NCBI GenBank assembly: GCA_964565715.1
Contig: CAZMGG010000003.1
Span: forward strand, 64,368 to 107,595
Direction of reading: 5' to 3'
Length of the DNA: 43,228 bases
From: an uncultured candidatus Brocadiaceae bacterium
GTDB taxonomy: Bacteria; Planctomycetota; UBA1135; UBA2386
Numbering within the stretch: the first letter of the stretch is position 1; each line of letters opens with the position of its first letter. A model generated the notes under the pieces. That model was not told the origin of the DNA, searched no databases, and worked only from the letters and a program-made list of their open reading frames with translations. This document shows positions 11,348 through 38,597 of this stretch, piece after piece. Position numbers and translations under genes: made by a program.

Positions 11348-11773
11348 GGGATTGCCTCCTGATGGGAAGCACTTGTGATGGTCAGGAACGTGATCGGGGG
11401 AACACCGGTGCGCGCCGTTCCCGATCGCGCACAGGTGGGATGTCATTGCTGGAAGTCGGAGGAAAGGTGCGCCGCCGCCGAGGTGCTGGGACAGGTCCTG
11501 GTTTGCCGCGGAGCCGGCAGGTGGCCACGGGTTCCGGCGCCGGCGATCCCCGCCCCGTCCCGTCCCGCGCGACCTGCCGCGGACTCCTGCACTGGACAGA
11601 GGATCGGCCGTCACCGTGACCCGCGGCCACGATTGCCTGCTGCAGAGCGACTCACCAGTTCATTGCGGATGGCACGAGGCCATCCGCGCCGGACCTGCCG
11701 TCAGTTCCTCGGCGACGGCGACACGCGCGGAGCTTCCCTTGCGGGACCCTGTCAAAGGGTGGCCTTGCGGCCG

Positions 11774-11847
11774 GAGGTCGAGCGGGATTCGAACCCGCAA
11801 CTTCGAGATTACAGGTCTCGTGCTCTGCCAGTTTGAGCTATCGATCG
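11774..11847 (-). tRNA. tRNA-like gene with UGU anticodon (Thr-like) and an imperfect acceptor stem; it may be a pseudogene or contain sequence error
   Basis: Minus-strand read CGATCGA-TA-GCTC-AAACTGGCA-GAGC-A-CGAGA-CCTGTAA-TCTCG-AAGTT-GCGGG-TTCGAAT-CCCGC-TCGACCT-C. D-arm, anticodon arm and T-arm (GGTTCGAATCC) are perfect. Acceptor pairs 1-72 and 3-70 are mismatched, and position 33 is C. Terminator-like hairpins (GGCCGCAAGGCC, ACCCTTTGACAGGGT) follow the 3' end. Confidence 0.45.
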
Positions 11848-12087: not shown

Positions 12088-12269
12088 GCGGCAGCCTCGC
12101 CGCAGGCATGTCGCAGAGGTGCGACGGGCTCACTTCGAGCCGGTAGCACATCTGCCATGGATTGGGGCGGGGCGTGTTCATGGGGGTGGGGGAAGGGGCG
12201 GCGAAGGGTAGCGACTCATTTCGCATTGTCAAGCGTCCATCCATGAATTCCGGCGTCACGGGGGTCACA

Positions 12270-13280
12270 ATGGCCCTCGTGCTGGACCACGCCGACTTCG
12301 AGCAGCTGCAGATCCACCGCCGCGCCGGCTGCACGGCCGTGGTGGCGATCCACAGCACCGCGCTGGGGCCGGCCCACGGCGGCATCCGGCGCTCTGGCTA
12401 TCCCGACCTGGCCGCGGCCATCGCCGACGCCCTGCGTCTGGGCGAGGCGATGACGATGAAGTGCGCGCTGGCCGAGGTGGCGGCCGGCGGCGGCAAGGCG
12501 GTCATCCTCGACCACCCGGACCTCGATCGCCGGCAGGCCTATCGCCTGGTGGGCGAGGCCGTGGCGCAGCTCGGCGGGCGTTTCTTCACCGGTCCCGACG
12601 TCGGCACCACCGCCGACGACCTGCGCGAGGTGGCCGCCGTGACGCCGCACGTGGCCATCGGCGACGGCGAGGACGACCTGGCTGGCGCCACGGCCGAAGG
12701 CGTCCTTGCGTCGCTGCGGGCCCTGGCCGTGCGCCTCGGCCTTGCCGACCTGCGTGGGCTGCGCATCGCCGTGCAGGGCACCGGCGCGGTGGGCGGTCGG
12801 CTGTGCGCCCTGCTGGCGGCGGCCGGCGCGCGTCTGCTGGTTGCCGATCGCGACGAGGCCTTGGCCGCCCGGGTGGCCAGGGCCTGCGGCGCGGAAGTGG
12901 TCCCCGCGGACGCCATCGTCACCGCCGCATGCGACCTGCTGGCGCCGTGCGCCCTGGGCGGCGTGCTCGACGGCGCCGCGGTGGCGGCGCTGCGTTGCCG
13001 CGGCGTCTGCGGGGCCGCCAACAACGTGCTGGCCGACGAGGCGGCGGGCCTCCTGCTGCACCGCCGCGGCATCCCCATGGTCCCCGACTTCGTCGCCAGC
13101 GCCGGCGCCCTGATCGTCGGCGCCACCCGCAACCTGACCGGCCGGCCGCCGGCGCCGGGCCGGGTCGCGGCCATCGGCGAGACCGCCGGCGCGATCCTCG
13201 ACCGCAGCCGGGCCGAGGACCGGCCGCCGCGACAGGTGGCCCTGGCGCTGGCGCAGGAACGACTGGCGGCGGGCCGATGA
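12270..13280 (+). CDS. Amino-acid dehydrogenase of the Glu/Leu/Phe/Val dehydrogenase family (leucine/valine dehydrogenase-like)
   Basis: Substrate/catalytic motifs GPAHGGIR and KCALAEVAAGGGK. A Rossmann GTGAVG motif in the C-terminal half. Start ATG giving MALVLDHADFEQL. Confidence 0.7.
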   Translation: MALVLDHADFEQLQIHRRAGCTAVVAIHSTALGPAHGGIRRSGYPDLAAAIADALRLGEAMTMKCALAEVAAGGGKAVILDHPDLDRRQAYRLVGEAVAQLGGRFFTGPDVGTTADDLREVAAVTPHVAIGDGEDDLAGATAEGVLASLRALAVRLGLADLRGLRIAVQGTGAVGGRLCALLAAAGARLLVADRDEALAARVARACGAEVVPADAIVTAACDLLAPCALGGVLDGAAVAALRCRGVCGAANNVLADEAAGLLLHRRGIPMVPDFVASAGALIVGATRNLTGRPPAPGRVAAIGETAGAILDRSRAEDRPPRQVALALAQERLAAGR

Positions 13281-14038
13281 GCCACCCGCGCGATCCCGGG
13301 CTCCTGCGCAACGCGCAGGGCGAACGGCTCGACGCGACGTTCGTGCCCTCGGCATCGCCGGCCGCGGCGGCCCGGCCGCTCGTGCTGGTGGCCCACGGCG
13401 TCACCTCGCACAAGGAACGGCCGTGGCTGGTCACCCTGTGCGCCTGCCTTGCGACGGCCGGTTTCGACGCCCTGCGCTTCACGTTCGCCGGCAATGAGGG
13501 CTCCGAGGGTCGCTTCGTCGACGCCACCATCCAGAAGGAGGTCGGTGACCTGGGGTCGGTGATCGACGCCTGCGCCGGCCGCCCGGTGGTGTACTGCGGC
13601 CACAGCATGGGCGCCGCGGTGGGCCTCCTGCGCACGCTGCGCGACCCCCGCATCGTCGCGCTGGTGTCATTGGCCGGCGTGATCGACCCGGCGGGGCTGA
13701 TCTCCCGGGTCTTCGGCCATCTGCGGCCGGGCGAGCCGATGCTGGACAAGCCGAATTGCCCGTTCTCCGCGGCCCTGCGGGACGGCGCCAATGCGCTCGG
13801 CAGCCTCCTGCCGCGGGCCCGCGAGGTGACCGTGCCCTGGCTGCTGGTGCACGGCGACCAGGACGAGCTGGTGCCGCACGCCGAATCGGCGGCGGCGGCG
13901 GCCGCGGCCCCCCGGGCGAGCCTCGTCACCCTGCCCGGCGTCGACCACCGCTTCGCCGGCGCCCACGACGCGATGGCCGCCGCGGTGGTGCGCTGGCTCC
14001 TGGGCCTCCGTCCGCCGGGCCCAGGCGCAGCGGCCTGA
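13277..14038 (+). CDS. Alpha/beta hydrolase fold protein
   Basis: ATG overlaps the dehydrogenase stop as ATGA. Nucleophile elbow GHSMG; downstream D and H in HGDQDELVPH. About 253 aa. Confidence 0.7.
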   Translation: MSHPRDPGLLRNAQGERLDATFVPSASPAAAARPLVLVAHGVTSHKERPWLVTLCACLATAGFDALRFTFAGNEGSEGRFVDATIQKEVGDLGSVIDACAGRPVVYCGHSMGAAVGLLRTLRDPRIVALVSLAGVIDPAGLISRVFGHLRPGEPMLDKPNCPFSAALRDGANALGSLLPRAREVTVPWLLVHGDQDELVPHAESAAAAAAAPRASLVTLPGVDHRFAGAHDAMAAAVVRWLLGLRPPGPGAAA

Positions 14039-14063
14039 ACGCCCGGGCGGCCGGGCCACTGCG

Positions 14064-15089
14064 TCAGTGCGTGCCGATCAGGGCCGCCCCGCCGTTGCTG
14101 AAGACGATCCCGGTCACGTTCGCGGCCGGGTCGGGCGCGAAGGCCTGCTGGTAGAGGTTGGCGCCGATGGCGGCGGTCACCGCGGGGATCGGGAAGTCCC
14201 ACGTCGCCGACCCGGCGTTCGCGAACAGCACGAAGCTGAGCATCGGATCGGCATACAGGCGGCACTGCGGCATGCCGAACGCGCCAAGATCCAGGGGCAG
14301 CGAATAGGCGCCCGACGTCGTGTTGGAGAGGCCGACCCAGGCGATCGCGACGGGGCCCGGGATGTGGTCGATGCGGGTGCGGAGGTTCTGGCCGACGATC
14401 GGCAGGGATCCACCGAGCGCGGAGAGGGCCAGCGGACCGGTGCCGCAGCCGGTGCCGAACGATGCATACGATGACGGGCTGCCGGGCAGCTGGGTCACCA
14501 CGACGTTGTCATAGCGGTTGGTGTTGCCGTTGATCGCCTTGAGCCCGATGTAGCCGCTGGCGAAATGCGTCAGGCCCCCGAATGACAGGGCAGGAAGCCC
14601 GTCGATGAAGGCGTTGGCCGTCGTGCCCACGACCTCCAGCCGGAGATGGTGCCACGCGTGGGCGGTAGTCGAGAACGGGCTCGAGCTGAGCACGGAGCAG
14701 GCGCCATTGCTGTAGTTCATCCGGCAGATGCCGACGCCGGAGTCGAAGATGTGGAACTGGTAGTACCGCCCAGCATCGCACCCAGGCGTGCTCGTCTCGA
14801 TGCGGAAGAGCACGGAGGCGTGACGGTTCCCGGCGTACGAGTCGATGTAGAAATCGACATCGATCGCGTAGTCGGTCCAGGTGGTCGATCCGATCGTGGC
14901 CCGCGCATCGCCGCAGGAGGTGAGGCTCTGGACGTGCAGGGCGCCGTTCACGACGTTGAACGAGCCGTCGAGGAGTTGCCAGCCGTTGACGTTGCCGTCG
15001 TTGAAGTCGTCGGCGACGAGGACCTGGGCGGGCATCATCACCGACAACATGACCGAGGAGAGAGTTGCAAGAAGGAGGGTGCTGCGCAT
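14064..15089 (-). CDS. Secreted protein with an N-terminal LamG/DUF1080-like jelly-roll domain and a C-terminal domain of unknown function
   Basis: Signal peptide MRSTLLLATLSSVMLSVMMPAQ. DDFNDGNVNGWQLLDGSFNVVNGALHV and WTDYAIDVDF resemble the DUF1080 / 3-keto-disaccharide hydrolase-like fold. Confidence 0.5.
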   Translation of the reverse strand: MRSTLLLATLSSVMLSVMMPAQVLVADDFNDGNVNGWQLLDGSFNVVNGALHVQSLTSCGDARATIGSTTWTDYAIDVDFYIDSYAGNRHASVLFRIETSTPGCDAGRYYQFHIFDSGVGICRMNYSNGACSVLSSSPFSTTAHAWHHLRLEVVGTTANAFIDGLPALSFGGLTHFASGYIGLKAINGNTNRYDNVVVTQLPGSPSSYASFGTGCGTGPLALSALGGSLPIVGQNLRTRIDHIPGPVAIAWVGLSNTTSGAYSLPLDLGAFGMPQCRLYADPMLSFVLFANAGSATWDFPIPAVTAAIGANLYQQAFAPDPAANVTGIVFSNGGAALIGTH

Positions 15090-15232
15090 GAGAGAGGGGT
15101 CTCGGAAGGGGGCGCAGAGTAGCGGAGCGACTGGGCGGGACCAGTGGCTGTAATGGAGCCCGGGCTTGCGCCGAGCCGTAGTGGGATCCGGCTACGCAAG
15201 GGTGCGGTCGAGGCCGGCGTGGTCCGTGCCGC

Positions 15233-16459
15233 TCAGCCTTCGATCAGCGCAATGAGCTGATCCACCGCCGCGTCGACGAAGGCCGGATCCTCGGCGTGGG
15301 TGGCCATCTCCCGCACCGTCACCGTCGCCGGCAGGCTCGCCTTCAGCGCCGCGAAGAACGCCTGATCGCCCGCCGGATCGCGCAGCGGGCCGCCTTCCCT
15401 CCCATAGCGGCTGGTCCCGGCGGTCGGCAGGAACAGCACCGCCCTGCCCTTGGTGTGCTGCAACCGCCGGCCGATCTCGCGGCCGACCTCCTCGAACTGC
15501 GCCCGGTCCAGGCGCGGCGCCAGCACCACCGGGCTGTGGAACACGTGCAGATGGTTCCGCCACGCCGGCGGCACCTGGTGCTCGGGCACCAGCAGGCCCA
15601 CGTGCTCGGTGCCGCCCGGCACGATCACCTGCGGCAGCCCGAGCCGGCCCGCCACCGTCAGCCGTTCCGGCGTCCCGGCCCGCAGGGCCTCGTGCAGTTC
15701 GTCGCTGATCTCGCCCAGCGCATAGTCGAACACCGCGCCGATGATGCCCTCCTTCATCATCTGCTCCATCGCCCGGCCGCCGGTCCCCACCGCGTGGAAC
15801 ACGATCGCCTCATAGCCGCGCTCGGCGAAGCGCCGCACCGCGTGCAGGGCGCCCTCGGTCAGCACACCGAGATTGGTCATGCCGATCAGCGGCCTCTCCC
15901 GCTGCTCGGCCCGGATCGGCCCGCCCACCTGCGCCATGCCCCAGATCGCCCCGGCGGCGTTGGCCAGCAGCCGCCGCAGGAACAGGTTGAGGCCGAGGAT
16001 GTCGCCGATCGACGGCATCATCGTGATGTCCTTGATGTCGACGTAGGGCGCGGTGTTGCCCGACGCCACCGTCGACACCATCAGCTTCGGCACGCCATAG
16101 GGCAGCGTCCGCATCACCTCGCAGCACACCGCCGTGCCCTGCAGGCCGCCCAGCCCGAGCACGCCGTGCACCTCGTCCCGATCGATGGCCCGCCGCAGCA
16201 GCCCACCGGCGCCGGCCACCATCACCGGCTGCGCCTTCTCCCGCGTCGGATCCTGCTGCAGCTTCGCCAGTCCGCTGCCGCCGGCCTCGGCGATTGCCTG
16301 CCGCGTCACGTCGCCGGCCGCCGCCGGCCGGCCGAGCACGCCGATGTCGTACAGCTGGGCCCGCCCGCCCAGCGCCGCGATCTGGTCGCGCACGAACGAC
16401 GCCTCGTCGGCCTTGGTGTCGAGGGTGGCCAGGATGGCGATCGTCTTCGGGCTCGGCAT
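15233..16459 (-). CDS. UPF0261 (Tm-1-like) family protein
   Basis: About 408 aa, MPSPKTIAILATLDTKADEASFV... It is conserved as a gene pair with the downstream PEP-hydrolase-like TIM-barrel gene. Confidence 0.65.
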   Translation of the reverse strand: MPSPKTIAILATLDTKADEASFVRDQIAALGGRAQLYDIGVLGRPAAAGDVTRQAIAEAGGSGLAKLQQDPTREKAQPVMVAGAGGLLRRAIDRDEVHGVLGLGGLQGTAVCCEVMRTLPYGVPKLMVSTVASGNTAPYVDIKDITMMPSIGDILGLNLFLRRLLANAAGAIWGMAQVGGPIRAEQRERPLIGMTNLGVLTEGALHAVRRFAERGYEAIVFHAVGTGGRAMEQMMKEGIIGAVFDYALGEISDELHEALRAGTPERLTVAGRLGLPQVIVPGGTEHVGLLVPEHQVPPAWRNHLHVFHSPVVLAPRLDRAQFEEVGREIGRRLQHTKGRAVLFLPTAGTSRYGREGGPLRDPAGDQAFFAALKASLPATVTVREMATHAEDPAFVDAAVDQLIALIEG

Positions 16460-16468
16460 GGGCGTTCC

Positions 16469-17341
16469 TCAGGAGCGGTGGAAGCGCAGCGCGGCAAAGC
16501 GCTGCGCGGTCTCGAACACGGCCTTCTCGATCGGGATCCGCTCGGTCGACGAGCCGGTCCAGAAGCCGTCGCACGACGTGTGATCCAGCATGTACTGCGC
16601 GTCCTCCGGCGTCTCCATCGCCGCGCCGTGCGCCACCAGGATCACCTCGGGCATGATCCTCCGCAGCCGCTGGTTGGCCTGCTCGGTCCGCGCCGCCGTC
16701 TCCTCGATGGTCTCGCCGGAGTCGTAGCCCTTCAGCCCGCCCTTGGTCGTCCCGGCATGGAAGCAGAACACGTCGGGCCGCGCCTCGGCCACCAGCCGCT
16801 CCGAGTCCTCCTCGTCGAACGCCAGCCCGATGGTGACCATGTCCATCTCCTTGGCCGCCTTCAGCAGCTCGATCTCGTTCTGGAAGGTGATGCCCGACTT
16901 CGTCAGCACCCGGTAGATCTCGCTGTCCTTGTCGACGTAGCTGATCGACGGCCCGATGTTGGAGATCGACATCACCCCCATCGCCTTGCACCGCTCGATC
17001 ACCGTGATCATGTCCTTCAGCGGATCGTTGGCGTTGACGCACGCGCACACGAACGAATCGCCCTTCAGCGCCGGCATGATGTCCTGCTCGGTGTAGTCCA
17101 GCGTCTGCTTGTTGGAGTCGAGGATCGGCCACAGCATCGACATGGTGCCCATGCCGTTGGCCCGCAGCCGCGCGCCGCTGAACGTGTTGATGCAGTCGAC
17201 GCCGGCCTTCTCCAGCATCTGCGCCACGAGGCCGCTGCCGGCGCTGGCGATGAACACCGGCAGGCGCTGCCGGACCTTCTGCCGGAGCTTGTCGAGGATG
17301 CGGGAACGGGTGGTGCGGGGGACGATCACGCGCCGGAACAT
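16469..17341 (-). CDS. Phosphoenolpyruvate hydrolase-like TIM-barrel protein, the usual partner of UPF0261
   Basis: 290 aa, LPVFIASAGSGLVAQMLEKAGVDCI... It lies 10 nt upstream of the UPF0261 gene on the same strand. Confidence 0.6.
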   Translation of the reverse strand: MFRRVIVPRTTRSRILDKLRQKVRQRLPVFIASAGSGLVAQMLEKAGVDCINTFSGARLRANGMGTMSMLWPILDSNKQTLDYTEQDIMPALKGDSFVCACVNANDPLKDMITVIERCKAMGVMSISNIGPSISYVDKDSEIYRVLTKSGITFQNEIELLKAAKEMDMVTIGLAFDEEDSERLVAEARPDVFCFHAGTTKGGLKGYDSGETIEETAARTEQANQRLRRIMPEVILVAHGAAMETPEDAQYMLDHTSCDGFWTGSSTERIPIEKAVFETAQRFAALRFHRS

Positions 17342-17388
17342 ACGGCGTCGGCGTGCCGCCGCCGACGATCCGCGCTAGCTTCTTTCCG

Positions 17389-17784
17389 ATGTACCACGAA
17401 GTCCCCGCCGACGCCTTCCGCCACCGCCTCCGCGTGCGCTACTGCGAGACCGACCAGATGGGCGTGGCCCACCACGGCAGCCACGTGGCCTGGTTCGAGG
17501 AGGCGCGCACCGAGTGGCTGCGCGCCCGCGGCCGGACCTACCGCGAGATGGAGGACGCCGGCGAGTTGCTGCAGGTGGTGGATCTGGTGATCCGGTACGC
17601 GGGCACGGTGCGCTACGACGACGTGGTGGTGATCGCGGTGTGGGCGGCGGAGCGCAGCAAGGTGGCGGTGCGGGTGGCGTACCGGGCGACCCGCGAGGAC
17701 GGTGCGCTGGTGGCGGAAGGGATGACGCGGCTGGCGTGCGTGGGGCGGGACGGCAAGGTGCGGCGGCTACCGGCAGGCGTGTGA
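17389..17784 (+). CDS. Acyl-CoA thioesterase, YbgC/4HBT hotdog-fold family
   Basis: MYHEVPADAFRHRLRVRYCETDQMGVAHHGSHVAWFEEARTEWL carries the conserved D-x-x-G-V-x-H-x-x-Y motif region of 4HBT thioesterases. Confidence 0.65.
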   Translation: MYHEVPADAFRHRLRVRYCETDQMGVAHHGSHVAWFEEARTEWLRARGRTYREMEDAGELLQVVDLVIRYAGTVRYDDVVVIAVWAAERSKVAVRVAYRATREDGALVAEGMTRLACVGRDGKVRRLPAGV

Positions 17785-18059
17785 GGTGGGTGGGGATGGT
17801 GAAGGCGGGGTGATCGGGTCGGCGCGTGGATGGGGTATGGGGGGGTGGACGCGCTGCGGTGGGGTGACGTAGCGTTGGCGGTCTGGGTCATCCGCGCGAG
17901 GACGCGGGTGCAGACCAGGGTTGCCATGGAAGTGAAAACTGCTGCGATGGCCGACGTTCTCTCCGGGTCTCCGAGTCTCCGGGTCTCGAGGCCAGCTTCC
18001 ATGCCTTTCGGGCAAGCGCGGAAGGATCTGCCGCGCGGCTTCTGGACCAGCTGACGCCG

Positions 18060-18683
18060 TTGGTCCTCGGCTGGATCATCCGGGCGCGCCGGCAGCGTCG
18101 CCCTTGGCTCGGGACAGAGGACCTGACCCAGGAGGCGCTGATCAGGATCCACGAAGGGCTACCGGGGCTGCTTTCGAGCGAAGTGGGCGGCCTGCTGCGG
18201 TGGGCCTGGCGGGTGTCAGCGAACGTCGTCGAGGATGAGTACCGTCGGACCAAGGCGCGGCGGCGGTCGCTCAGCGGACGGGATCCGGCGGACCCAGCGG
18301 ACGTGGTCGGCCGTGAGGATCCGCCAGACCAGGCGGTTGCGCGAGGCGAGGCGATCCAGTGGGTCGGCAGCCTGCTGTCGGCACTCTCGCCGCAGCACGA
18401 GCAGGTCCTGAGGCTTCGTGCCGAGGGTCGCGACTTCGACGAGGTGGCATCCGTGATGGCGCTGCCGTCGTCGAATGCGGCCGAGTGCCTGCATCGGCGA
18501 GCGATGGTGGCGTTGGATGAGGGACAGGCCCGCCGCAGGGCGAGGGGCTGTGGCGCAGCATCTTATTGCGTCCATGGGGTCGTCCGCGGCGCTGGCCGCG
18601 CCTTCCATCTTCTTCCGTGCAATCCAAAGAGGTTCCCATGCAGATCCCGGGCAGGCGGTTCTCCAACAACGACAAGATCCTGA
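18060..18683 (+). CDS. ECF-type sigma-70 factor; the start is uncertain and a canonical initiation codon for region 2.1 is missing
   Basis: Region 2.2 LTQEALIRIHEGL and region 4 LSPQHEQVLRLRAEGRDFDEVASVMALPSSNAAECLHRRAMVAL. The in-frame upstream sequence ...SAARLLDQLTPLVLGW resembles region 2.1, but no ATG or GTG follows the preceding stop; only CTG and TTG are available. Confidence 0.5.
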   Translation: MVLGWIIRARRQRRPWLGTEDLTQEALIRIHEGLPGLLSSEVGGLLRWAWRVSANVVEDEYRRTKARRRSLSGRDPADPADVVGREDPPDQAVARGEAIQWVGSLLSALSPQHEQVLRLRAEGRDFDEVASVMALPSSNAAECLHRRAMVALDEGQARRRARGCGAASYCVHGVVRGAGRAFHLLPCNPKRFPCRSRAGGSPTTTRS

Positions 18684-19009
18684 CGGATTGGGCCCCGCGC
18701 GGAGGGGACAACATGATCATCCGGGCGGACCGGGTGGCCTCCACGGCGTCGGGCAGCTGCCGGGTCACGATCCGGGTGATCACCAAGAACGCCGACGAGA
18801 GCGGCGAGGGTGTTCCGATCCACAGCAGCACCAACCCGGTGAGCTTCCAGGTGCTGAACTCGAACGACTCCCGATGTAGCATCCTTGCAAGCGGTGAGAC
18901 GCATGCTGGCACAGTGAAGGCATACTGGGCAGTCGCCATTGCCCCATCAGGAATGAAGACATTCCAGATTCGATGCAGGTGCCCTTGGATCCCCGCGGAG
19001 CCGATGTGA
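18638..19009 (+). CDS. Hypothetical small protein of 123 aa; first gene of the lower-GC cassette
   Basis: AAGAGG lies 7 nt upstream of the ATG. The stop overlaps the next gene's GTG as ATGTGA. No recognisable motifs. Confidence 0.5.
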   Translation: MQIPGRRFSNNDKILTDWAPRGGDNMIIRADRVASTASGSCRVTIRVITKNADESGEGVPIHSSTNPVSFQVLNSNDSRCSILASGETHAGTVKAYWAVAIAPSGMKTFQIRCRCPWIPAEPM

Positions 19010-19446
19010 TCACCAATCGAACATCCAGGATCGGACTTCTCGTCCTGGTGGCCTTGTTGCCGGTGATCGCATTCATCTGGTGCGGACGCCAGAGATCGGA
19101 CACTTGTGGGACGGTAAGCCCATGTCAGGAGTATGGACAAGCCCTGTTCGGCGCGAGCGCAGCCGTTGGAAGCATCATTCCGTTTATTGGAGCCAACCAT
19201 CAGGCTGTGCCTTCCGAATGGCTGGCCTGTGATGGTCGGGAGGTCGAGTCGCAGGATCATCCGGAACTAGCTACGCTGCTCGGTTCTGGGCAGGCCGGGG
19301 CATTCAGACTGCCGGATTTTCGTGGGATCTCGGCCATGAGGTTGAAGGGATATGACGGTCCAGCGAGCATGGCGTTGACGCAGCGCATCCCCGAGGAGAG
19401 CCCCGTAGTTGCTGTTCCTGTTGTTTGGTTCGTCAAGGCACGCTGA
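19006..19446 (+). CDS. Membrane-anchored phage tail-collar domain protein
   Basis: N-terminal TM helix IGLLVLVALLPVIAFIW. The stretch SIIPFIGANHQAVPSEWLACDGREVESQDHPELATLLGSGQAGAFRLPDFRG matches the tail-collar consensus (I..F.G...P.GWL.CDG........LF.LLG.......F.LPDLRG). Confidence 0.65.
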   Translation: MITNRTSRIGLLVLVALLPVIAFIWCGRQRSDTCGTVSPCQEYGQALFGASAAVGSIIPFIGANHQAVPSEWLACDGREVESQDHPELATLLGSGQAGAFRLPDFRGISAMRLKGYDGPASMALTQRIPEESPVVAVPVVWFVKAR

Positions 19447-19568
19447 TGGTGCGGGCGCACGTTGCTACACGAAGCGCGTGGATTCCCTGGATTTCCCGGG
19501 CATCATGGCAAGGCCTTTGTGCGTCCCCACGGACCAGCACTTGCTCGCTTGCAGGGTCACGGAGCGCC

Positions 19569-19775
19569 ATGGGCTGTTCTGCCGGACATGACAGCGGGTC
19601 CGTAGCTGGGGACTGGACCATTCCCGACGAAGGCATGGGCCAGATCTGGGACCGCAGGATGGCGCCGGACAAGGGCCACGGCAGTGAGGGCGGCTCCGGC
19701 GGAAAGGCCGGCTGTGGTTGCTCTGCCGGCGGCTCCTGCGGATGCAGGGGCGGATGCAGCGGCGGGACCCCCTGA
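19569..19775 (+). CDS. Gly/Ser/Cys-rich small peptide, 68 aa from Met 19569; alternative starts at 19635 or 19659 give 46 or 38 aa. Putative RiPP/bacteriocin-like precursor or metal-binding peptide
   Basis: C-terminal core GGSGGKAGCGCSAGGSCGCRGGCSGGTP. GGAG lies 4 nt upstream of the 19569 ATG. The stop overlaps the next gene's ATG as TGATG. This is the only long open frame in the 210-nt gap. Confidence 0.45.
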   Translation: MGCSAGHDSGSVAGDWTIPDEGMGQIWDRRMAPDKGHGSEGGSGGKAGCGCSAGGSCGCRGGCSGGTP

Positions 19776-20506
19776 TGTCGGTGAAGTCCGGGAGCAATAC
19801 GAGAGAAGCGCCAGCGGGGCGTGTGGGGACCGCTCGATCTGCCTGGCTGGGTTGGAGGCGGCGTCGTGAATCTATTGCAGTATGGCTGGCCGTCGGAGCA
19901 ATGGCAGCGTACATCCTTCTGCTTGCCGTCAGTGTCACGACGGCGTTGATGCTGGCGGTGCTTATGGGGGTCGTTGCCTATTGTGGACTACGGTGCCCTC
20001 GCGGAAGCAGGGTATCGGCCAAGGCGAAGAGTCTGGTGGTGGGGGCCTGTCTGGGATTCACGGTGACATGGGGTGGCGTCCTTGCGGGGAGCACGTGCTA
20101 TCGCGAACTGTCGCCCGAGGCTCAGTTGGAGTGGGATCAGGCCTATCTTGAACACCATGATCCTCATGAGGTCTGGCGCACTGCTGTCGTGGCAGGTTGG
20201 CCGGTGTGCGGAGTGGAAGGTCACGACGACTTCTACTGGATACGACGATCCTGGCGGGAGCAAGGGATGGGAGAGCGGCCCATAATTGTCAGTCAAGCGA
20301 CGCAGCCCTGGCGCGTGCCGCCATCTAAAGGCGTATGGGTGCTGTGGATCAACTTCGCGATCCTGACATGGTGTGGATGGGGGCTGGCCATCCTCATGCC
20401 GGGCAGATGGGTGACTCTGGCGCTGCCGTGGTGTGCCGCGGCTGCTGCCGTTGCGGTGGTATGGTCCGTGTATTGGCTGTGGAGGAATGCACTCGGTAAT
20501 GTCTAG
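19775..20506 (+). CDS. Four-TM membrane protein A, a putative immunity/transport protein of the cassette
   Basis: MSVKSG... start is coupled to the peptide stop. Two N-terminal and two C-terminal TM helices flank a Trp-rich central domain, VVAGWPVCGVEGHDDFYW. Confidence 0.55.
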   Translation: MSVKSGSNTREAPAGRVGTARSAWLGWRRRRESIAVWLAVGAMAAYILLLAVSVTTALMLAVLMGVVAYCGLRCPRGSRVSAKAKSLVVGACLGFTVTWGGVLAGSTCYRELSPEAQLEWDQAYLEHHDPHEVWRTAVVAGWPVCGVEGHDDFYWIRRSWREQGMGERPIIVSQATQPWRVPPSKGVWVLWINFAILTWCGWGLAILMPGRWVTLALPWCAAAAAVAVVWSVYWLWRNALGNV

Positions 20507-20733
20507 GCGGCAGCCGGCGTCGCCGATTGGCTGCGTGGCTGTGCAGGCCGGTCGGACCCGTAGCCGAGTGGCGGCGGGGCGTCCGACACGACCGTGCCAC
20601 CCGCCACGGACCGGAGCAGTGGCTGTTCCGGGTCTACGGTCTACGCGGGTGGCGAACTCAGGCCGGCATGAAGGTCGCCCAACCGCAACCCGGGCGACCG
20701 GAAGGCAGAGTTGCCAGCATGTGAGGTTGCACA

Positions 20734-21423
20734 ATGGATGATGTCGGGGTGCATCGGAGAGGAGTCCTGGAGCACACGGTGACGGAGCCAGGCGTGTCGA
20801 TCCGGATCCGTGCCGTGATGTGGGTATTTCTCTTCGGTTTCGCTGCTGCACTGGCGGTCATGCTGAACGCGGGGTTTCTGCTCATCATCCGCGTCGTCTC
20901 GTTGCTCCTGGTGTGGGCATGTCTGCCGTTCCTGTTGCGGCGGTGTGGGATATGGGCACTCCGAGCGTCCCTCGCGGTGGTGGTCGCATGGGGCGGGACC
21001 GGCTGCCTCCTGCACCTGACGACGGTGGCGTACAAGGACCTCAATTGGTCGCAACGGGAGGCCTGGGAGCAGACGTGGGTGGGGGCGAGTAATCGGCCGA
21101 CGTGGGTGGTGGCAGGATGGTCGATATGGGGTGTGGAGGGTCGAGACCCGGTAACCGATGCGTGGTACAGAGGCTCGATTGTCGTCGAGGGAGGATCGCG
21201 TTACCGGGACCCGTGTTGGGGGCTCTACGGCGACAAGGGCGTCGTTGCGTACGTCGCCAACTGGACCATCCTGTGGCTGATGGTCATGGTCGCGCTGGCA
21301 GTCGTTGGGCGATGGCGGGCGCCCGGGCGCGTGTCACTGGTCCGTCCCTGGTGCATCGCGTCGGCCTTGTGGGCCTTGGGCACTCATCTCGAGTTCGAGT
21401 GGTTCCGCGAGTACGGCTGGTGA
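20734..21423 (+). CDS. Four-TM membrane protein B, a paralogue of A; an alternative start is Met at 20818
   Basis: Same architecture as A, with conserved central motifs: WVVAGWSIWGVEGRDPVTDAWY against VVAGWPVCGVEGHDDFYW, and LNWSQREAWEQTW against LSPEAQLEWDQAYL. Confidence 0.55.
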   Translation: MDDVGVHRRGVLEHTVTEPGVSIRIRAVMWVFLFGFAAALAVMLNAGFLLIIRVVSLLLVWACLPFLLRRCGIWALRASLAVVVAWGGTGCLLHLTTVAYKDLNWSQREAWEQTWVGASNRPTWVVAGWSIWGVEGRDPVTDAWYRGSIVVEGGSRYRDPCWGLYGDKGVVAYVANWTILWLMVMVALAVVGRWRAPGRVSLVRPWCIASALWALGTHLEFEWFREYGW

Positions 21424-21603
21424 AGGCACCCCGTTCCCGCGATCGACCCCTGCGCCATGTACACCCCAGACCGCCCCACAGCCCCGCGCCCACCCACACC
21501 CACCCACCCATCCGCCCGGCCGGAAGTGGCGCCGCCGGCCGGTTCCCGCTCGAATGCCGGCAACCCGGCGTATCCTCGCCCTCGCCCGTATTCCCGCCCG
21601 CCC

Positions 21604-22125
21604 ATGTCGCTTGCCCCCGAGATCGCCCTCGAACGCCACCGTGAGCGCCTGCTGTCGGTGATCTACCTGCGGATGGGGCCGGACCTGCGCACCCGGATGG
21701 ATCCCGAGGATGTCCTGCAGGACGTCGCCATCGAGGCCCTCAACTCCTGGCACACCCTGTCGGACCCCGAACTGGCCGGGCCGTGGCTGGTGACCCTGGC
21801 CCGACGCAAGATCGCGCGCATCCTGCGCGATCAGGTGGGGGTGGCGGCGCGGGATCCGCGGCGGGAGCACCCGATCCAGACGGACTTCCCGGTGGCGGAC
21901 CGGCGGACCGGGCCGGTGACCACCGCCGATCGGGGCGATCGCCTGCAGCTGCTGGAGGCGGCGTTGCAGCGGCTGTCCGACGATCACCGCGAGGTCGTGC
22001 TGGGGATGAAGATCGAGGGCCAGTCGGCGAAGGAGGTGGCCGACCGGATGGGGCGCAGCGAGAACGCCATCCACCTGCTGCTCGGGCGTGCGTTGAAGCG
22101 GCTGGCGGAAGAGCTGAAGCTCTGA
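21604..22125 (+). CDS. ECF sigma-70 factor
   Basis: Region 2 DPEDVLQDVAIEALNSW and region 4 LSDDHREVVLGMKIEGQSAKEVADRMGRSENAIHLLLGRALKRL. The kinase gene starts 3 nt after its stop. Confidence 0.7.
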   Translation: MSLAPEIALERHRERLLSVIYLRMGPDLRTRMDPEDVLQDVAIEALNSWHTLSDPELAGPWLVTLARRKIARILRDQVGVAARDPRREHPIQTDFPVADRRTGPVTTADRGDRLQLLEAALQRLSDDHREVVLGMKIEGQSAKEVADRMGRSENAIHLLLGRALKRLAEELKL

Positions 22126-22127
22126 GC

Positions 22128-24698
22128 ATGACCGAGGCCCGCCCCGAGGCGCCCGAGCCGGGACCGCCGGACAGCAGCGCCGACCGCCGCATGGCGGACC
22201 TGCTGGCGGACACCAGCAGTGCCGCGGAACTGCGGCGGCGGCTGCAGGGCGACGCGACGGCGGCGCCGGATCGCGAGGATCTGCTGGCGCGGGTGAACGC
22301 GCTGGAGTTCGTCGACGCGGTGGTGGGCGGCGTCGACCTGCCCGCAGCGATCGGCGGCTACCGGATCCAGGGCCTGCTGGGCCGCGGCGGCATGGGCACG
22401 GTCTACCTGGCGTTCCAGCAGCAGCTCGAGCGGATCGTCGCGCTGAAGGTGCTGTCGCCGAACTGGTCGGCGGATCCGACCATGCGCGAGCGGTTCCGGG
22501 CGGAGGCGCGCGCGACGGCGGCGCTGCACCACCGGCACATCGTGCCGATCTACGACTTCGGCGAGGCGCAGGGCAGCCTGTACTTCGCCATGGAACGGGT
22601 GGACGGACTGAGCCTCGACCGGCACATCGCCGCGGCGCGGCGGCGTGGACAGCCGCCGATGGCGCCGCTGGAGGCGGCGCGGCGCTTCGCCGGCGTGGCC
22701 GACGCGCTGGGGCTGGCCCACCGGCGGCGGATCCTGCATCGCGACATCAAGCCCGGCAACATCCTGGTGGGCCAGGACGGCACGCTGGCGTTGACCGACT
22801 TCGGGCTGGCCAAGGTGCTGGACCGGGCGTCGCTGCGGCTGACGTCGAAGTCGGGCGGCTTCCTCGGCACGCTGCACTACAGCTCGCCGGAGCAGGCGCT
22901 GGGCCGCGAGGTGGGGCCGGCCAGCGATCTGTACGGGCTCGGCGTGACGCTGTTCGAGGCGATCACCGGCGAACTGCCGCACCGGGGGCGCACGACGGAG
23001 GCGGTGCTGCGCGAGATCCTGGAGGGCGAACCGCGGCGCCTGCGGGAGTTGCTGCCGCGGCCGCCGCGGGACCTGGAACTGGTGCTCGACAAGCTGATGG
23101 CCCGGGAGCCCGGCGACCGCTACCAGGACGGCGAGGCGCTGGCGCGCGACCTGCAGCGCATCGCCGACGGCGAGCCGGTGCACATCCGGCGGCTGCCGGT
23201 GTGGGTGCGGGCCTGGCGACGGGCGCGGAAGAATCCGCTGCTGGCCGGCGCCATGGTCACCGCCGCGGTGCTGCTGCTGGCGACGCTGGGGCTGTGGAGC
23301 GGCCTGCGCCGCGAGAAGGGCCAGGGGCTGGTGTCGCGGCACCAGAACCACCTGGTGCAGATCGCCAACGACGTGAAGCGCGAGGCCGGCGATCCGGCGG
23401 GCCCGGCGGGCCTGCTGGCGTGCCTGACGGGCACCTCGCTGCCCCAGGCGACGGAGAACACGACGCTGCTGGCGGCGATCGCCGCGGCCCAGGCCGAGGT
23501 GCCCGACGACCCGGTGCCGGCGGCGTTGCGGGCGGCGTGGCGGGAGGATCCAGCGCCCGAGGTGAGCGGGCTGCTGCGGGCGGGACGCGGCTTGGCGGCG
23601 CTGCAACGGCTGCGCGCGCCGATCGAAGGCGCGCTGGCGGAGCGGACCGGCGGCGACCTGTCGGTGGAACTGCGGCTCTACCGGCTCTACCTGCTGCGGG
23701 CGGTGGCCAACCTGACCGGCGCCGTGGGCGACCTGCCGGCGGCGCGGATGGACCTGGCCCTGGCGACGTTCCTGCGGCCCGGCGCCACGTTCCCGCGGCT
23801 GCTGGGCGAGGTGCTGGACGTGGTGACGACGCGGGCGGTGGGCACGGCGCTCCTCTCGTTCGAGCAGGAACTGGGCCGACGGAGCGTCGAGGAACGGCGG
23901 GTGGCGGGGCTGCTGCTGCGGGCCGCGGCGGCGCTGCCGCAGCCGCCGGGCGCCAATCTGCTGCCGCTGCCGCTGCCCCACCCCGACCGGCACCTGCTGG
24001 CCGCCGCCGCCGAGGCGTTGCTGGCCGGCAGCGTGCTGCCGGTGACCGCTGGCGCGCCGTCGCTGGAGGCGCAGCTGCTCGGCGCCGCCATCGAAGCCTC
24101 GCGGCACGGCGGCGACCTGCTCGCCCTGCAGGGCGCGCTGCAGCGGGGCCGCGCGCTGCTGGCCGAGGTGGCGCCCGAGGCGCCGCTGCAGTGCTGGCGG
24201 CTGGTGCTGGACCTGATCGAGCAGACGCCGAGCGCCGACACGCCGATGCTGGTTGGCGCCGACGATCCGCCGGCGCTGGTGCTGGCGGCCTGGGAGCGGT
24301 TCGCCCTGCTGGGCACCGCGCGCTTCCGGGTCGCCGCCTGGCTGCCGTCGTTCGTGCGGTTCGAGCAGGAACATGGCGACCTCACCGGGCTGCCGCGGAC
24401 GGCGGCGCTGGTGCGGCGGGCGGCGGGCCAGCTCACCGAGCCGCTGGCCCAGGCGTGGGTGGATGCGGCGCCGCGGGATCCGGACGCGCTGCTCTGCCGG
24501 CTGGAGGCGCGATTGCTGCTGCGGCGTTTCCCCCAGGCGGTCGACGACGGCATGGCGGCGGTGCAGTTCGCCGCCGACCGCGCGACGGCGGCGCGGGCGG
24601 TGGCGGCGTTGTTCGCCGCCGCCACCGAGCGGGCGATGCTCGGCGAGAAGATCTACCTGCAGCGGGTCACGGCGGTGTTCGCGGAGGCCGGCACGTGA
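22128..24698 (+). CDS. Hanks-type Ser/Thr protein kinase with a TM helix and a large C-terminal, probably periplasmic, domain
   Basis: Gly loop GRGGMGTVYLA; VAIK-like IVALKV; catalytic loop HRDIKPGNIL; DFG; SPE. TM helix LLAGAMVTAAVLLLATLGLW, followed by ~470 aa A/L-rich. Confidence 0.8.
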   Translation: MTEARPEAPEPGPPDSSADRRMADLLADTSSAAELRRRLQGDATAAPDREDLLARVNALEFVDAVVGGVDLPAAIGGYRIQGLLGRGGMGTVYLAFQQQLERIVALKVLSPNWSADPTMRERFRAEARATAALHHRHIVPIYDFGEAQGSLYFAMERVDGLSLDRHIAAARRRGQPPMAPLEAARRFAGVADALGLAHRRRILHRDIKPGNILVGQDGTLALTDFGLAKVLDRASLRLTSKSGGFLGTLHYSSPEQALGREVGPASDLYGLGVTLFEAITGELPHRGRTTEAVLREILEGEPRRLRELLPRPPRDLELVLDKLMAREPGDRYQDGEALARDLQRIADGEPVHIRRLPVWVRAWRRARKNPLLAGAMVTAAVLLLATLGLWSGLRREKGQGLVSRHQNHLVQIANDVKREAGDPAGPAGLLACLTGTSLPQATENTTLLAAIAAAQAEVPDDPVPAALRAAWREDPAPEVSGLLRAGRGLAALQRLRAPIEGALAERTGGDLSVELRLYRLYLLRAVANLTGAVGDLPAARMDLALATFLRPGATFPRLLGEVLDVVTTRAVGTALLSFEQELGRRSVEERRVAGLLLRAAAALPQPPGANLLPLPLPHPDRHLLAAAAEALLAGSVLPVTAGAPSLEAQLLGAAIEASRHGGDLLALQGALQRGRALLAEVAPEAPLQCWRLVLDLIEQTPSADTPMLVGADDPPALVLAAWERFALLGTARFRVAAWLPSFVRFEQEHGDLTGLPRTAALVRRAAGQLTEPLAQAWVDAAPRDPDALLCRLEARLLLRRFPQAVDDGMAAVQFAADRATAARAVAALFAAATERAMLGEKIYLQRVTAVFAEAGT

Positions 24699-27490
24699 CG
24701 CCGCCGTGGAGCGGGCGGCGGCGCGCCTGGGCCATGGCCGTCGGCGTGCTGGTGCTGGTGGCCATCGCGTCGGTGACGGCGTGGATCCTGGTCCAGGGCG
24801 GCGGTACCGGGCGGCGCGCGGCACCGGCCTCGGCGGGCGCACCGGCCGGCGCCAGCGTCGCGCCGGTGCCGGCCCTGCCGGCGGGGCCGCTGCCGGCGCC
24901 CAGCGACGACGGCGGCGTAGCGGGCACCGTCCTGCGGCCCGATGGCCTGCCGGCCACCGGCGCCCGCGTGACCCTGCACCGCGCCCAGACGGCGTGGCCC
25001 GAGTGGCGGCGGCAGGCGCTGGAGGTCGCGGTCACCACCGCCGGCGGCCAGTTCCGCTTCCGTACCGCGCGCGGACCCGACCTGCTGCTCGAGTTCGAGC
25101 ACCCGGACTTCGCCGGCGACCTGATCGAGGCCTCGCCCCTGGTGCGTGACGTGCAGCTCCGCCTGCAGCCGGGCTTCGTCGTGTCGGGCTTCGTGGTGGC
25201 CAACCGCCGGCGCCAGTTCGGCTGCCGCGTCACGCTGGAACCGACCATGGGCGAATGGCGGCGCACGGTGGGCGTCGACACCGGCACCGACGGCGCGTTC
25301 CGCTTCGACAACGTGCCCGCCGGCAGCGTGCGCGTGGTGGCGCGGCATCCGGCGTGGCAGCCGGCGGTGCAGCCGCAGGTCACGGTGGGCGCCAGCCGCG
25401 GCCTGGAACTGCGCTTCGAACGGCCGCCGCTGTCGCTCACCGGCCGGGTCCTGGCGGGCGGCAGCCAGCGGCCCCTGGTCGGCGCCCGGGTCACGGCGCT
25501 GCCCAACGTGACCTACCGCGCCCTGTTCGAGCCGCTGGTGACGATGACCGGCGGCGACGGCCGCTTCACGTTCCAGGGCCTCGGGCCCGGCAACCTGCGC
25601 ATCGAGGTGACGCATCCGGAATGGTCGAGCGGCTCGCGTTCGGTCGCGGTCAGCGACTCGTCGGTGGAGCTGCTGTTCGAACTGCTGCCGCGGGCGGCGG
25701 TGCGCGGCCTGCTGCGCCGCGTCGATGGCGTGATCGGCGGCGCCCTCGACGGCGTCCTGCTGTCGCTGCGCTCGGCCAGCGGCGAGATGGGCCGCTGCGC
25801 GGTCGCCGTGGATGGCACCTTCGCCTTCCCCGGCACCTGGTCGCTGGGCAACGCGACGCTGGAGGCCGTCGATGGCGCCGTGGCGTTCGCGCGCACGTCG
25901 GGCGCCGACCTGCCGATCCGCATCGAGGAGGGCGGCGAGGACCTGCAGATCGACGTCACCGCGCCGTCGGTGCTGCGCGGCCGGGTGGTGGACGGCGGCG
26001 GCGCGCCGCTGCCGGGGGCGCAGCTGCTCATCTCCCAGGAACTGCTGCGCCTGCCGGCACCGGACCGGGTGGTGGCGGTGGCCCTGGCCGACGGCTGGTT
26101 CGAGGTGCGCGGCCTGGCGGCGCGCTCGATGTCACTGACCGCGTGCCATCCGGGTCGGGCGGCGCGCCGCGTCGAGGTGCAGGCGCCGGCGCCCGGCGCC
26201 ACCCTGACCGTGCCCGACGTCGTCCTGCTGCCCGGCGGCAGCATCCGCGGCGTGGTCCGTCGCGGCGAAGGGCCGCTGCCGGGGGCGCTGGTGCAGGCCA
26301 CCGGCGGCGTGGCGTCCGGCACGACGGTGGCCGGCGCCGATGGAGCCTTCCTGCTGACCGATCTGGCGCCGGGCAGCTACCGCGTGCGCGCCCGCTACTC
26401 GACCATGCCGCTGGCGTTCGCCGAGGGCGAACTGACGATCACGCCAGGGGCCGTGCTGGGGCCGGTCGAACTCCGCTTCGGCGCCGGCCGCACGGTGCGC
26501 GGCGTGGTGCTCGGGCGTGACCGCCAGCCCGTGGAGGGCGCGGCGGTCACGGCCCGCGGTCTCACCTCATCCGGTGCACCGATCGTCACCGACGCCGCCG
26601 GCGCGTTCGCGATCGAAGTGCCGCAACGCGAGGTCGAACTGCTGATCGCGACCAGCCACGGCGGCAGCCAGGTCCTGCAGCGGGTGCCGGCGGAGGTCAC
26701 CGACGTCGAGGTGACGCTGGACGTGGCGCCGACGGCGACGGTCACCGGCCGCCTGCTCACCACGGTCGGCCGGCGACCCCTGCCGGCGGTGCTGGTGCGC
26801 ATCGAGCCGATCGGTGGCGCCGGGCCCCGCGCCAGCCTGGTCCGCTGGCTGGATCTGGCCGGTGGCGCCCTGCGGCTGCCGTTCGTGCCGGCGCAACCCT
26901 GCCGGCTGATCCTGCAGGGCGAGGGCCTCCTGCCGGCGGTGTTCCCGCTCACCCTGGTGGCCGGGCAGGAACACGATCTCGGCGAGGTGCTGCTGGAACC
27001 CGGCGCCGTGCTGTTCGGCCGCGTCGTCGACGAACAGGGCGCGCCGGTGCCGGGCTGCACCGTCTTCTTCGGCCGCGAGGAGGACCTGCGCGACCACGCG
27101 CCGCCGGGCCGCACCGATCCGCAGGGCCTGTTCCGGCTCGGCGGCGTCAGCTCAGCGCTGCCGACCCTGGTGGCCGTGGCACCGGGCTTCGCGCCGCGCA
27201 CCGTCACCCTGCGCCTGCCGCAGGACGTGCTGGCGCGGGAACCGCTGCCGGTCGTGCTGTCCCGCGGCACCCGCCTCGAGGTGGCGGTGCACGACGGCAC
27301 CGCCGGCCAGATGGTCGTCCTGCAGCGGGACGGCGCGATCCTGCAGGTGGCCGAGTCGGAGGACTCGGGCGTGGCGCACTTCCCCAACCGCGCCGCCGGG
27401 GTCTACGAGGTGTTCCTGCTGGGCCGGCCCGAGACCCTGGTGCAGGTGGCGCTGGACGGCCGCGCGGAGACGCTGCGCCTCGACCTGTGA
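24695..27490 (+). CDS. Large membrane-anchored CarboxypepD_reg-like repeat protein, a paralogue-type of the 5240-7669 gene; an alternative ATG is at 24734
   Basis: GTG overlaps the kinase stop as GTGA. TM helix AMAVGVLVLVAIASVTAWIL. At least 8 repeats of G-x-V-x-x-x-x-G-x-P-x-x-G-A, for example GRVVDGGGAPLPGAQL, GVVRRGEGPLPGALV and GRVVDEQGAPVPGCTV. Confidence 0.7.
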   Translation: MTPPWSGRRRAWAMAVGVLVLVAIASVTAWILVQGGGTGRRAAPASAGAPAGASVAPVPALPAGPLPAPSDDGGVAGTVLRPDGLPATGARVTLHRAQTAWPEWRRQALEVAVTTAGGQFRFRTARGPDLLLEFEHPDFAGDLIEASPLVRDVQLRLQPGFVVSGFVVANRRRQFGCRVTLEPTMGEWRRTVGVDTGTDGAFRFDNVPAGSVRVVARHPAWQPAVQPQVTVGASRGLELRFERPPLSLTGRVLAGGSQRPLVGARVTALPNVTYRALFEPLVTMTGGDGRFTFQGLGPGNLRIEVTHPEWSSGSRSVAVSDSSVELLFELLPRAAVRGLLRRVDGVIGGALDGVLLSLRSASGEMGRCAVAVDGTFAFPGTWSLGNATLEAVDGAVAFARTSGADLPIRIEEGGEDLQIDVTAPSVLRGRVVDGGGAPLPGAQLLISQELLRLPAPDRVVAVALADGWFEVRGLAARSMSLTACHPGRAARRVEVQAPAPGATLTVPDVVLLPGGSIRGVVRRGEGPLPGALVQATGGVASGTTVAGADGAFLLTDLAPGSYRVRARYSTMPLAFAEGELTITPGAVLGPVELRFGAGRTVRGVVLGRDRQPVEGAAVTARGLTSSGAPIVTDAAGAFAIEVPQREVELLIATSHGGSQVLQRVPAEVTDVEVTLDVAPTATVTGRLLTTVGRRPLPAVLVRIEPIGGAGPRASLVRWLDLAGGALRLPFVPAQPCRLILQGEGLLPAVFPLTLVAGQEHDLGEVLLEPGAVLFGRVVDEQGAPVPGCTVFFGREEDLRDHAPPGRTDPQGLFRLGGVSSALPTLVAVAPGFAPRTVTLRLPQDVLAREPLPVVLSRGTRLEVAVHDGTAGQMVVLQRDGAILQVAESEDSGVAHFPNRAAGVYEVFLLGRPETLVQVALDGRAETLRLDL

Positions 27491-36567: not shown

Positions 36568-36716
36568 GGCAAGGGGGGTGGGAAGGGTCGCCGGGGGTGC
36601 GGCCGGCGAGGGTGCGGAAGTGTAACACGTTGCCCCGCATGGCCGTGCGTCATCCGACGGCTTTCCGACGGCGGCCCTACCCGGTTCGCCTGATGCAGGC
36701 GAGAATCCGACACCCT

Positions 36717-38597
<1,881 letters not shown>

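Follow-up and report, generated by a model that had tools for sequence, protein, structure and literature searches.

What does a pair of small, tryptophan (Trp)-rich membrane proteins, encoded side by side in the genome of an uncultured planctomycete, contribute to its host? The question is raised by a stretch of 43,228 nucleotides (nt) from an uncultured candidatus Brocadiaceae bacterium (GenBank assembly GCA_964565715.1, contig CAZMGG010000003.1, positions 64,368 to 107,595), hereafter the window, in which two adjacent genes on the plus strand, P1 (19775-20506; 243 amino acids, aa) and P2 (20734-21423; 229 aa), encode polytopic proteins recognized by their open reading frames (ORFs) and by their mutual resemblance. 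A preliminary description of the locus regarded them as tandem paralogues with four transmembrane (TM) helices, lying next to a candidate secreted peptide in the manner of an immunity-gene array. The account that we consider reasonably probable is a plainer one: P1 and P2 would be a diverged pair of orphan inner-membrane proteins, derived from an old tandem duplication and carried as accessory envelope cargo.

An old tandem duplication

P1 and P2 are real, anciently duplicated paralogous genes. Alignment by BLASTP gives 30% identity across 199 aa (E 1e-8) and runs uninterrupted from residue 38 to residue 224 of P1, with neither stop codon nor frameshift. Because membrane proteins have a biased composition in common, the similarity was also set against shuffled sequences. 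The Smith-Waterman score of 152 compares with 46 +/- 8 in global shuffles (z 13) and with 61 +/- 14 when residues were shuffled in blocks of 20 (z 6.5), and the central loops alone reach a z of 6.5. The likeness thus goes beyond composition, and the tandem paralogy first proposed from inspection of the letters is borne out. No third copy was found, a six-frame tblastn search of the whole window returning the in-frame paralogue only. At the DNA level the similarity is limited to a stretch of 43 nt about the core motif described below, and, with Trp and Met set aside, only 19 of the 58 identical residues have the same codon, from which it follows that the duplication is old and that the resemblance has been maintained at the level of protein.

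The Trp-rich character of the pair is equally clear (7.8% in P1 and 8.3% in P2, against 1.14% in 6,412 aa of well-supported host genes). The motif VVAGW-x3-GVEG-[HR]D, already picked out in the preliminary description, occupies residues 138-151 of P1 and 125-138 of P2 and is absent elsewhere in the six frames of the window; a broader form, VV[AG]GW-x3-GVEG-x-D, likewise fits both proteins. A second motif proposed there, L-x-W-[SD]-Q, does occur in both, but its register is ambiguous: BLAST and MAFFT pair LEWDQAY of P1 with EAWEQTW of P2 and not with LNWSQ, so that the two occurrences are not superposed.

Predicted topology and the central loop

The arrangement of two membrane blocks around a soluble Trp-rich domain was correctly perceived at the outset, but hydropathy indicates three segments in the N-terminal block, making a 3+2 architecture likelier than the 2+2 originally suggested. 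The first hydrophobic block extends over ~40 residues with a polar turn at its middle (SVTT in P1, LNAG in P2), that is, two helices, and is followed by a basic loop, a third hydrophobic segment, a loop of 71-79 residues and two further segments. The N-terminus, of which ~26-33 residues are predicted to lie in the cytoplasm, is basic; loop 2 carries a charge of +5 in P1 and +3 in P2, and loop 4 of +1 and +4, respectively, neither loop containing an acidic residue. The central loop is net acidic in both proteins (in P1, 8 Lys plus Arg and 12 Asp plus Glu), whereas the short loops that neighbour it in P1 are purely basic. By the positive-inside rule these charges favour five helices, a cytoplasmic N-terminus and a periplasmic location for the acidic, Trp-rich loop; four helices are disfavoured because the purely basic loops would then face outside.

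The loop predicted to be periplasmic comprises residues 107-185 in P1 (20093-20329), where it holds VVAGWPVCGVEGHD at nt 20186-20227, and residues 99-169 in P2 (21028-21240), where it holds VVAGWSIWGVEGRD at nt 21106-21147 and is the part of the protein most variable between strains. Among known membrane proteins, those of the TspO/MBR family (PF03073) are Trp-rich, have five helices within ~160 aa and are not known to carry a large extramembrane loop. P1 and P2 recall them in their approximately five helices and unusually high Trp content, but neither matches PF03073 at E <= 1, and their helices are broken up by the loop of 70-80 aa.

A family confined to one lineage

The family had been put forward as uncharacterized, and searches for a Pfam or DUF assignment leave it so. 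P2 has no match in Pfam-A, NCBIfam, PHROGs or PADLOC, and P1 yields sub-threshold noise in the same collections (best Pfam E 0.072, under the curated cut-off); a profile search of PDB sequences was likewise empty. An exhaustive phmmer search with P2 of 1.84 billion representatives, standing for ~15 billion proteins, returned P2 itself only, and a word-seeded search with P1 alone found nothing among 5.8 billion cluster representatives. No homologue of either protein was detected in a scan of GTDB species genomes, in JGI metagenomes queried with the profile and with a degenerate nucleotide pattern for the core motif, or among IMG/VR viral contigs. A phage collection gave no tblastn match to P1 and a plasmid collection none to P2, nor did blastn of the low-GC segment in which the genes lie find a match in either collection. 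Only a word-seeded search with a profile of P1 plus P2 recovered, besides P2, a single further member, P0003. As judged by these searches, the family is a sequence orphan, confined to one narrow lineage and new at the sequence level.

P0003 is a protein of 236 aa encoded on a 943-nt contig (L004) from another sequencing run, SRR28842990. It is an orthologue of P2, with 85% protein identity and 88.7% DNA identity, and the homology extends into the sequence upstream of the next gene. Between the two, the ratio of nonsynonymous to synonymous substitution rates (dN/dS) is 0.48 overall, with values of 0.63 for the N-terminal membrane part, 0.44 for the loop between and 0.13 for the C-terminal part, and P2 is accordingly under purifying selection. 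Synonymous divergence is itself uneven: dS is 0.41 in the central loop and 0.09-0.12 in the membrane parts, which are nearly identical even at synonymous positions. The substitutions are packed into 21060-21195 of the window (495-625 of L004), and a compensated frameshift, made up of a 2-nt and a 1-nt gap, lies near 21160-21190. Since dS in the loop is raised as well and dN/dS there is 0.44, not above 1, the divergence has the look of a patch left by recombination or mutation, not of positive selection.

The same organism, at 99.9-100% identity, is present in three more sequencing runs, SRR10807893, SRR10807626 and SRR34397405, in which the sole polymorphism observed in P1 is non-synonymous (P75H). 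Both genes have the better claim to their reading frame, though to different degrees. For P2 the frame is clearly the best of six by host codon usage (-0.23 bits per codon, the next being -0.66), the GC content at third codon positions (GC3) is 0.79, and a GAGG situated 8 nt 5' of the ATG provides a ribosome-binding site of its own; the protein is present in NCBI as P0001, on a contig of 107,595 bp. For P1 the frame is the best of six by a weak margin (-0.70 bits per codon against -0.95 or lower) and GC3 is 0.66. Public annotation, in NCBI and in the assemblies of other runs alike, recognizes the final 79 aa of P1 only (20267-20506, P0004), so that the full-length protein of 243 aa is a re-annotation of the public gene model.

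A low-GC filling of a variable slot

The pair lies within a lineage-specific insertion of 3.8 kb (17785-21603), delimited by GC, GC3 and synteny, that separates a thioesterase gene from a conserved module encoding an extracytoplasmic function (ECF) sigma factor and a kinase. The insertion has a GC content of 0.653 against 0.721 for the whole window; at ~18.7-21 kb the GC content is 0.58-0.67 and GC skew is strongly positive. Likewise, GC3 is 0.63-0.81 within the insertion as against 0.91-0.95 in the flanking genes. These values mark the insertion as foreign or fast-evolving.

Relatives sought through the neighbouring PEP-hydrolase gene had only that gene pair in common, and syntenic ones were recovered instead through the downstream sigma-factor gene, sig2. 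In six relatives (L085, L088, L090, L091, L092 and L093) the order thioesterase, sig2, kinase, CarboxypepD_reg protein is syntenic, and the contents of the slot between the first two differ. It is empty in L090 and L091. L088, with a record labelled Planctomycetota UBA2386, has a secreted protein of 354 aa there, and L092 one of 453 aa; in L093 the slot codes for a RidA-like protein (Pfam Ribonuc_L-PSP) together with a 140-aa protein. The tract in L085, 7.9 kb long, encodes a peptidyl-prolyl isomerase (PPIase), a TPR protein, a protein of 576 aa and an S8 peptidase. None of the slot proteins of these six relatives resembles P1 or P2. Differing contents between syntenic flanks identify 17785-21603 as the lineage-specific filling of a variable slot. 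In atypical GC and codon usage, in restriction to one strain lineage and in a slot that differs while its flanks stay syntenic, P1 and P2 are like many lineage-specific "hypothetical" genes; they differ from many of these in forming an old paralogous pair, one member of which has an orthologue under purifying selection. The borders of the insertion show no tRNA gene, integrase or flanking repeats, the only tRNA gene of the window being at 11773-11847.

The surroundings of the slot show further irregularities. In L088 (5322-6790) and L090 (5272-6751) a Glu/Leu/Phe/Val dehydrogenase gene lies directly 5' of the thioesterase gene, whereas in the window (12147-17784) the two are ~4 kb apart, with DUF1080-like, UPF0261 and PEP-hydrolase-like genes intervening on the minus strand. 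From the gene order, the region around the slot has probably undergone another rearrangement or insertion here. Within the minus-strand UPF0261 gene (15398-15428), the otherwise identical Logan contig L001 has seven C-to-T changes within 31 nt, which are G-to-A on the coding strand and produce four amino-acid substitutions (G351R, S353N, G356E and R357K); the patch could stem from local hypermutation, from recombination along a short tract or from an error of assembly. A second low-GC stretch (0.60) occupies positions 1-2000 of the window and contains a 474-aa ORF (428-1852, plus strand) with several long hydrophobic stretches in its translation. By the look of that translation the protein is multi-pass, and here, at the edge of the window, the ORF may represent a further accessory gene for a membrane protein.

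The overlapping gene run upstream

All genes between 18.0 and 27.5 kb are on the plus strand. Those leading to the pair follow the order sig1, orf123, the gene for a collar protein, CG109 and P1, with P2 set off by a spacer of 227 nt. Start and stop codons overlap at three junctions, GTGA at orf123/collar, TGATG at collar/CG109 and TGATG at CG109/P1. Overlaps of this sort are characteristic of genes whose translation is coupled within an operon.

At the head of the run is sig1 (18060-18683), which encodes an ECF-type sigma factor, possibly degraded. It matches TIGR02937 with 44.8 bits against a cut-off of 42.9, and its matches to the Pfam region 2 and region 4 models fall under their cut-offs. 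Region 2.1 (…FHAFRAS…AARLLDQLTPLVLGW…EDLTQEAL…) is encoded 5' of the first canonical start (TTG, 18060) in a reading frame that spans 17814-18683, and no ATG, GTG or TTG occurs between the upstream stop codon and that TTG. The gene may therefore be N-terminally truncated, use a non-canonical start, or be a pseudogene. Next comes orf123 (18638-19009), encoding a soluble protein of 123 aa; its own frame is clearly the best, GC3 is 0.81, it forms a singleton cluster (P0002), and it belongs to no known family, with no match in Pfam, PHROG, NCBIfam, PADLOC or PDB.

The third product is a membrane-anchored protein with a phage-tail Collar domain (19006-19446; 146 aa from GTG 19006), identified by a match to PF07484 (E 2.6e-10) and by an N-terminal hydrophobic segment, and matching tail-fibre families of PHROG as well. 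The Collar domain is normally found in tail fibres. At 146-157 aa, depending on the start chosen, this is an unusual form of the domain, both short and tethered to the membrane.

CG109 (19446-19775), overlapped by TGATG at both ends, is an ORF of uncertain coding status with a Cys/Gly/Ser-rich C-terminal tail (GCGCSAGGSCGCRGGCSGG). It is the neighbour that had been taken for a candidate secreted peptide, a reading with which it does not agree: no TM segment, hydrophobic signal or double-glycine leader was found, no family was matched in Pfam, PHROG, NCBIfam or PADLOC, and its coding statistics are weak, its own frame not being the best-scoring of six for host codon usage. In composition the tail (KAGCGCSAGGSCGCRGGCSGGTP) recalls azole-peptide precursors or metal-binding tails. 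A role as azole-peptide precursor was rejected, neither a YcaO protein nor a dehydrogenase being encoded among the scanned ORFs of the window. An Rfam scan of 17-22.5 kb gave no match, and a scan of the region for promoters and terminators gave results at chance level.

The condition of this segment bears on an alternative that we regard as unlikely, namely that 18.9-20.6 kb, comprising the collar gene, CG109 and P1, is degenerating, with P1 an unexpressed or truncated pseudogene and P2 alone functional. GC3 values of 0.63-0.71 and poor codon scores in this interval agree with decay, as do the loss of the canonical start of sig1, the shortness of the collar protein after its domain and the non-synonymous nature of the single polymorphism in P1. 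On the 7,967-bp contig L001, moreover, gene callers accepted P1 for 79 codons only and left 19009-20267 without a gene; on a shorter contig, L002, unlike on L001, a partial ORF was called from 18973. Yet the alignment of P1 with P2 crosses residues 38-224 with no stop or frameshift, the start/stop overlaps are preserved at all three junctions, and the P1 frame is still the top-scoring of six, all of which count against decay.

The conserved backbone and sigma-factor control

Downstream of P2 the conserved module (21604-27490) consists of sig2 (21604-22125), a Ser/Thr kinase gene (22140-24698), which holds its place in the conserved order, and a gene for a large CarboxypepD_reg protein. Typical sizes of the products are 173 aa for the ECF sigma factor, ~860 aa for the kinase and ~950 aa for the CarboxypepD_reg repeat protein. 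Homologues of the sigma factor sig2 that are exactly 173 aa long and 75-83% identical to it number in the hundreds among metagenome-assembled genomes of Planctomycetota, and this length places its true start at Met50 (21604), the 222-aa sigma ORF of the window being over-extended by 49 Pro-rich codons.

As membrane proteins encoded near an ECF sigma gene and in its orientation, P1 and P2 can be compared with anti-sigma factors, of which polytopic examples such as NrsF (DUF1109) exist beside the classical single-pass proteins with an N-terminal anti-sigma domain. P1 and P2 depart from these in that they are the fifth and sixth genes after sig1 and not adjacent to it, and in that their predicted cytoplasmic N-termini are so short. 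Neither Pfam nor NCBIfam gave a match to an anti-sigma domain, zf-HC2, RskA, FecR or DUF1109. Anti-sigma function was rejected for the pair on the lack of such a domain, on gene position (it is orf123 that follows sig1), and on the partnership of sig2 with a kinase. A kind of ECF sigma factor that is encoded beside a Ser/Thr kinase and lacks an anti-sigma partner has been described, the kinase being its presumed regulator (PMC7826278). Since sig2 is of this kind, P2 is not needed as its regulator or partner.

A promoter-like motif, AGTGGCG…GCAATGCCGG…GAATC-N15-CGTAGC, is conserved 5' of the sig2 orthologues, ~10-20 nt before the ATG (L085 7862-8009, L088 7873-8009, L090 6752-6886, L091 5873-6009 and L092 5860-6009; the counterpart in the window is 21520-21603), and looks like an ECF-type autoregulated promoter. 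The copy in the window reads GTATC-N12-CGTATT, with an altered -35-like element and a shorter spacing. The form GAATC-N15-CGTA was sought 5' of P1, P2 and sig1 and is absent there, nor does it occur anywhere in the window; P2 thus shows no sign of membership in the sig2 regulon.

A provisional account of the pair

In the account favoured here, each protein would cross the membrane five times from a cytoplasmic N-terminus and would expose to the periplasm an acidic, Trp-rich loop of 70-80 residues built around VV[AG]GW-x3-GVEG-x-D. The genes are accessory cargo in a variable slot of a conserved backbone. P1, which closes an overlapping series of genes that begins with that of an ECF-type sigma factor, would be co-expressed with the periplasm-facing collar protein, and P1 and P2 may act with that protein in the cell envelope through binding of a ligand or partner by the Trp-rich loop. 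They would on this account be output genes of the island's operon and not regulators of the sigma factor. Most of the weight of the account lies in what it says of structure and evolution, and little in the role, which is a guess: that the genes are real and paralogous, that they are orphans and that their location is accessory are matters of observation.

Several points count against it. Codon adaptation of P1 is weak and gene callers retained only its last 79 codons, such that full-length expression may fail. With no canonical start for region 2.1 of sig1, expression of the operon may have ceased to be driven in the manner supposed here. The hydrophobicity of the fifth TM segment of P2 is weak, which speaks against five helices. 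No homologue, fold or domain offers a functional handle on either protein, and the AlphaFold2 models, built on alignments of two and three sequences, are unreliable (predicted local distance difference test, pLDDT, of 49 and 46) and supply no fold from which a function could be read.

Less likely readings: immunity proteins, phage cargo or a new cassette

The suggestion with which the locus was first described, an array in which P1 and P2 are polytopic immunity proteins against a cassette product such as the CG109 peptide or the collar protein, now seems improbable, to about the degree of wholesale decay. Its attractions are several. The proteins are small, polytopic, tandem-duplicated and strongly diverged; their genes are carried on a strain-specific low-GC insertion; strain differences are concentrated in the exposed loop; P1 is joined by start/stop overlap to small ORFs upstream; and the Gly/Ser/Cys-rich tail of CG109 is like the azole-peptide precursors, for example that of microcin B17, in composition. 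Polytopic bacteriocin immunity proteins, among them those against the pore-forming colicins, SdpI of Bacillus subtilis and CdzI of Caulobacter, are indeed small multi-pass inner-membrane proteins, often duplicated or variable, carried on accessory DNA and devoid of enzymatic motifs. P1 and P2 resemble them in these general respects (small size, multiple passes, duplication, accessory DNA, no enzymatic motif) but share no sequence similarity with them in Pfam, NCBIfam or PADLOC, and no cognate toxin, leader or exporter was found nearby. Nor is a Trp-rich periplasmic loop of 70-80 residues a known feature of bacteriocin immunity families.

The features that recommend immunity, including the variable loop, are in any case non-specific, and several observations count against it. 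CG109 has neither a signal nor a double-glycine leader, and another frame outscores its own for host codon usage; in the loop, dN/dS does not exceed 1 and dS is raised too; and neither PADLOC nor any other collection matched the proteins to a family. Among the well-supported larger ORFs of the window, scanned with Pfam apart from the large ORF at 35724-38597 and with five ORFs matching no Pfam family, there is no toxin domain, no YcaO or other modification enzyme, no C39 peptidase, no ABC exporter and no radical SAM protein. Nor was a toxin domain found in orf123 or the collar protein by searches of Pfam, PHROG, NCBIfam, PADLOC and PDB. Linkage of homologues to toxin genes gives no further help, as the sole other member of the family sits on a 943-nt contig and no other homologue neighbourhoods were found. 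The immunity-array reading is thus unsupported, with no toxin, modification enzyme or exporter, and no leader-bearing toxin or precursor, to sustain it.

Less probable again is the remnant of a prophage or other mobile element in which P1 and P2 would be "moron" membrane proteins near a tail-fibre fragment, serving, for example, in superinfection exclusion or receptor masking. In its favour are the Collar domain, which is typical of the tail fibres of phages, the atypical composition and the location in a variable slot. Collar domains are, however, also common in non-phage bacterial proteins; there is no integrase, border tRNA gene or flanking repeat, and no phage gene besides the Collar domain; and P1, P2 and the segment as a whole are unmatched in the phage, plasmid and viral-contig collections.

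The most doubtful proposal is that Planctomycetota have here a new cassette for toxin/immunity or sensing functions directed at the envelope, one in which the Trp-rich loops would neutralize or sense the collar protein or the Cys-rich peptide: if it were true, P1 and P2 would found a class of their own among polytopic immunity or sensor proteins, and the toxin/immunity or envelope-sensing unit would be a fresh case in a phylum from which hardly any such systems are known, but nothing found points there specifically.

Implications

There is no evidence here for a new kind of system, and P1 and P2 are lineage-specific accessory membrane proteins. The work matters mainly for annotation, in that the gene model of P1 is corrected from 79 aa to a full paralogue of 243 aa. 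It also documents a sequence-orphan family of membrane proteins with evidence of true coding constraint, and it identifies a variable insertion slot beside a highly conserved module of ECF sigma factor, Ser/Thr kinase and CarboxypepD_reg protein in a widespread lineage of uncultured Planctomycetota.

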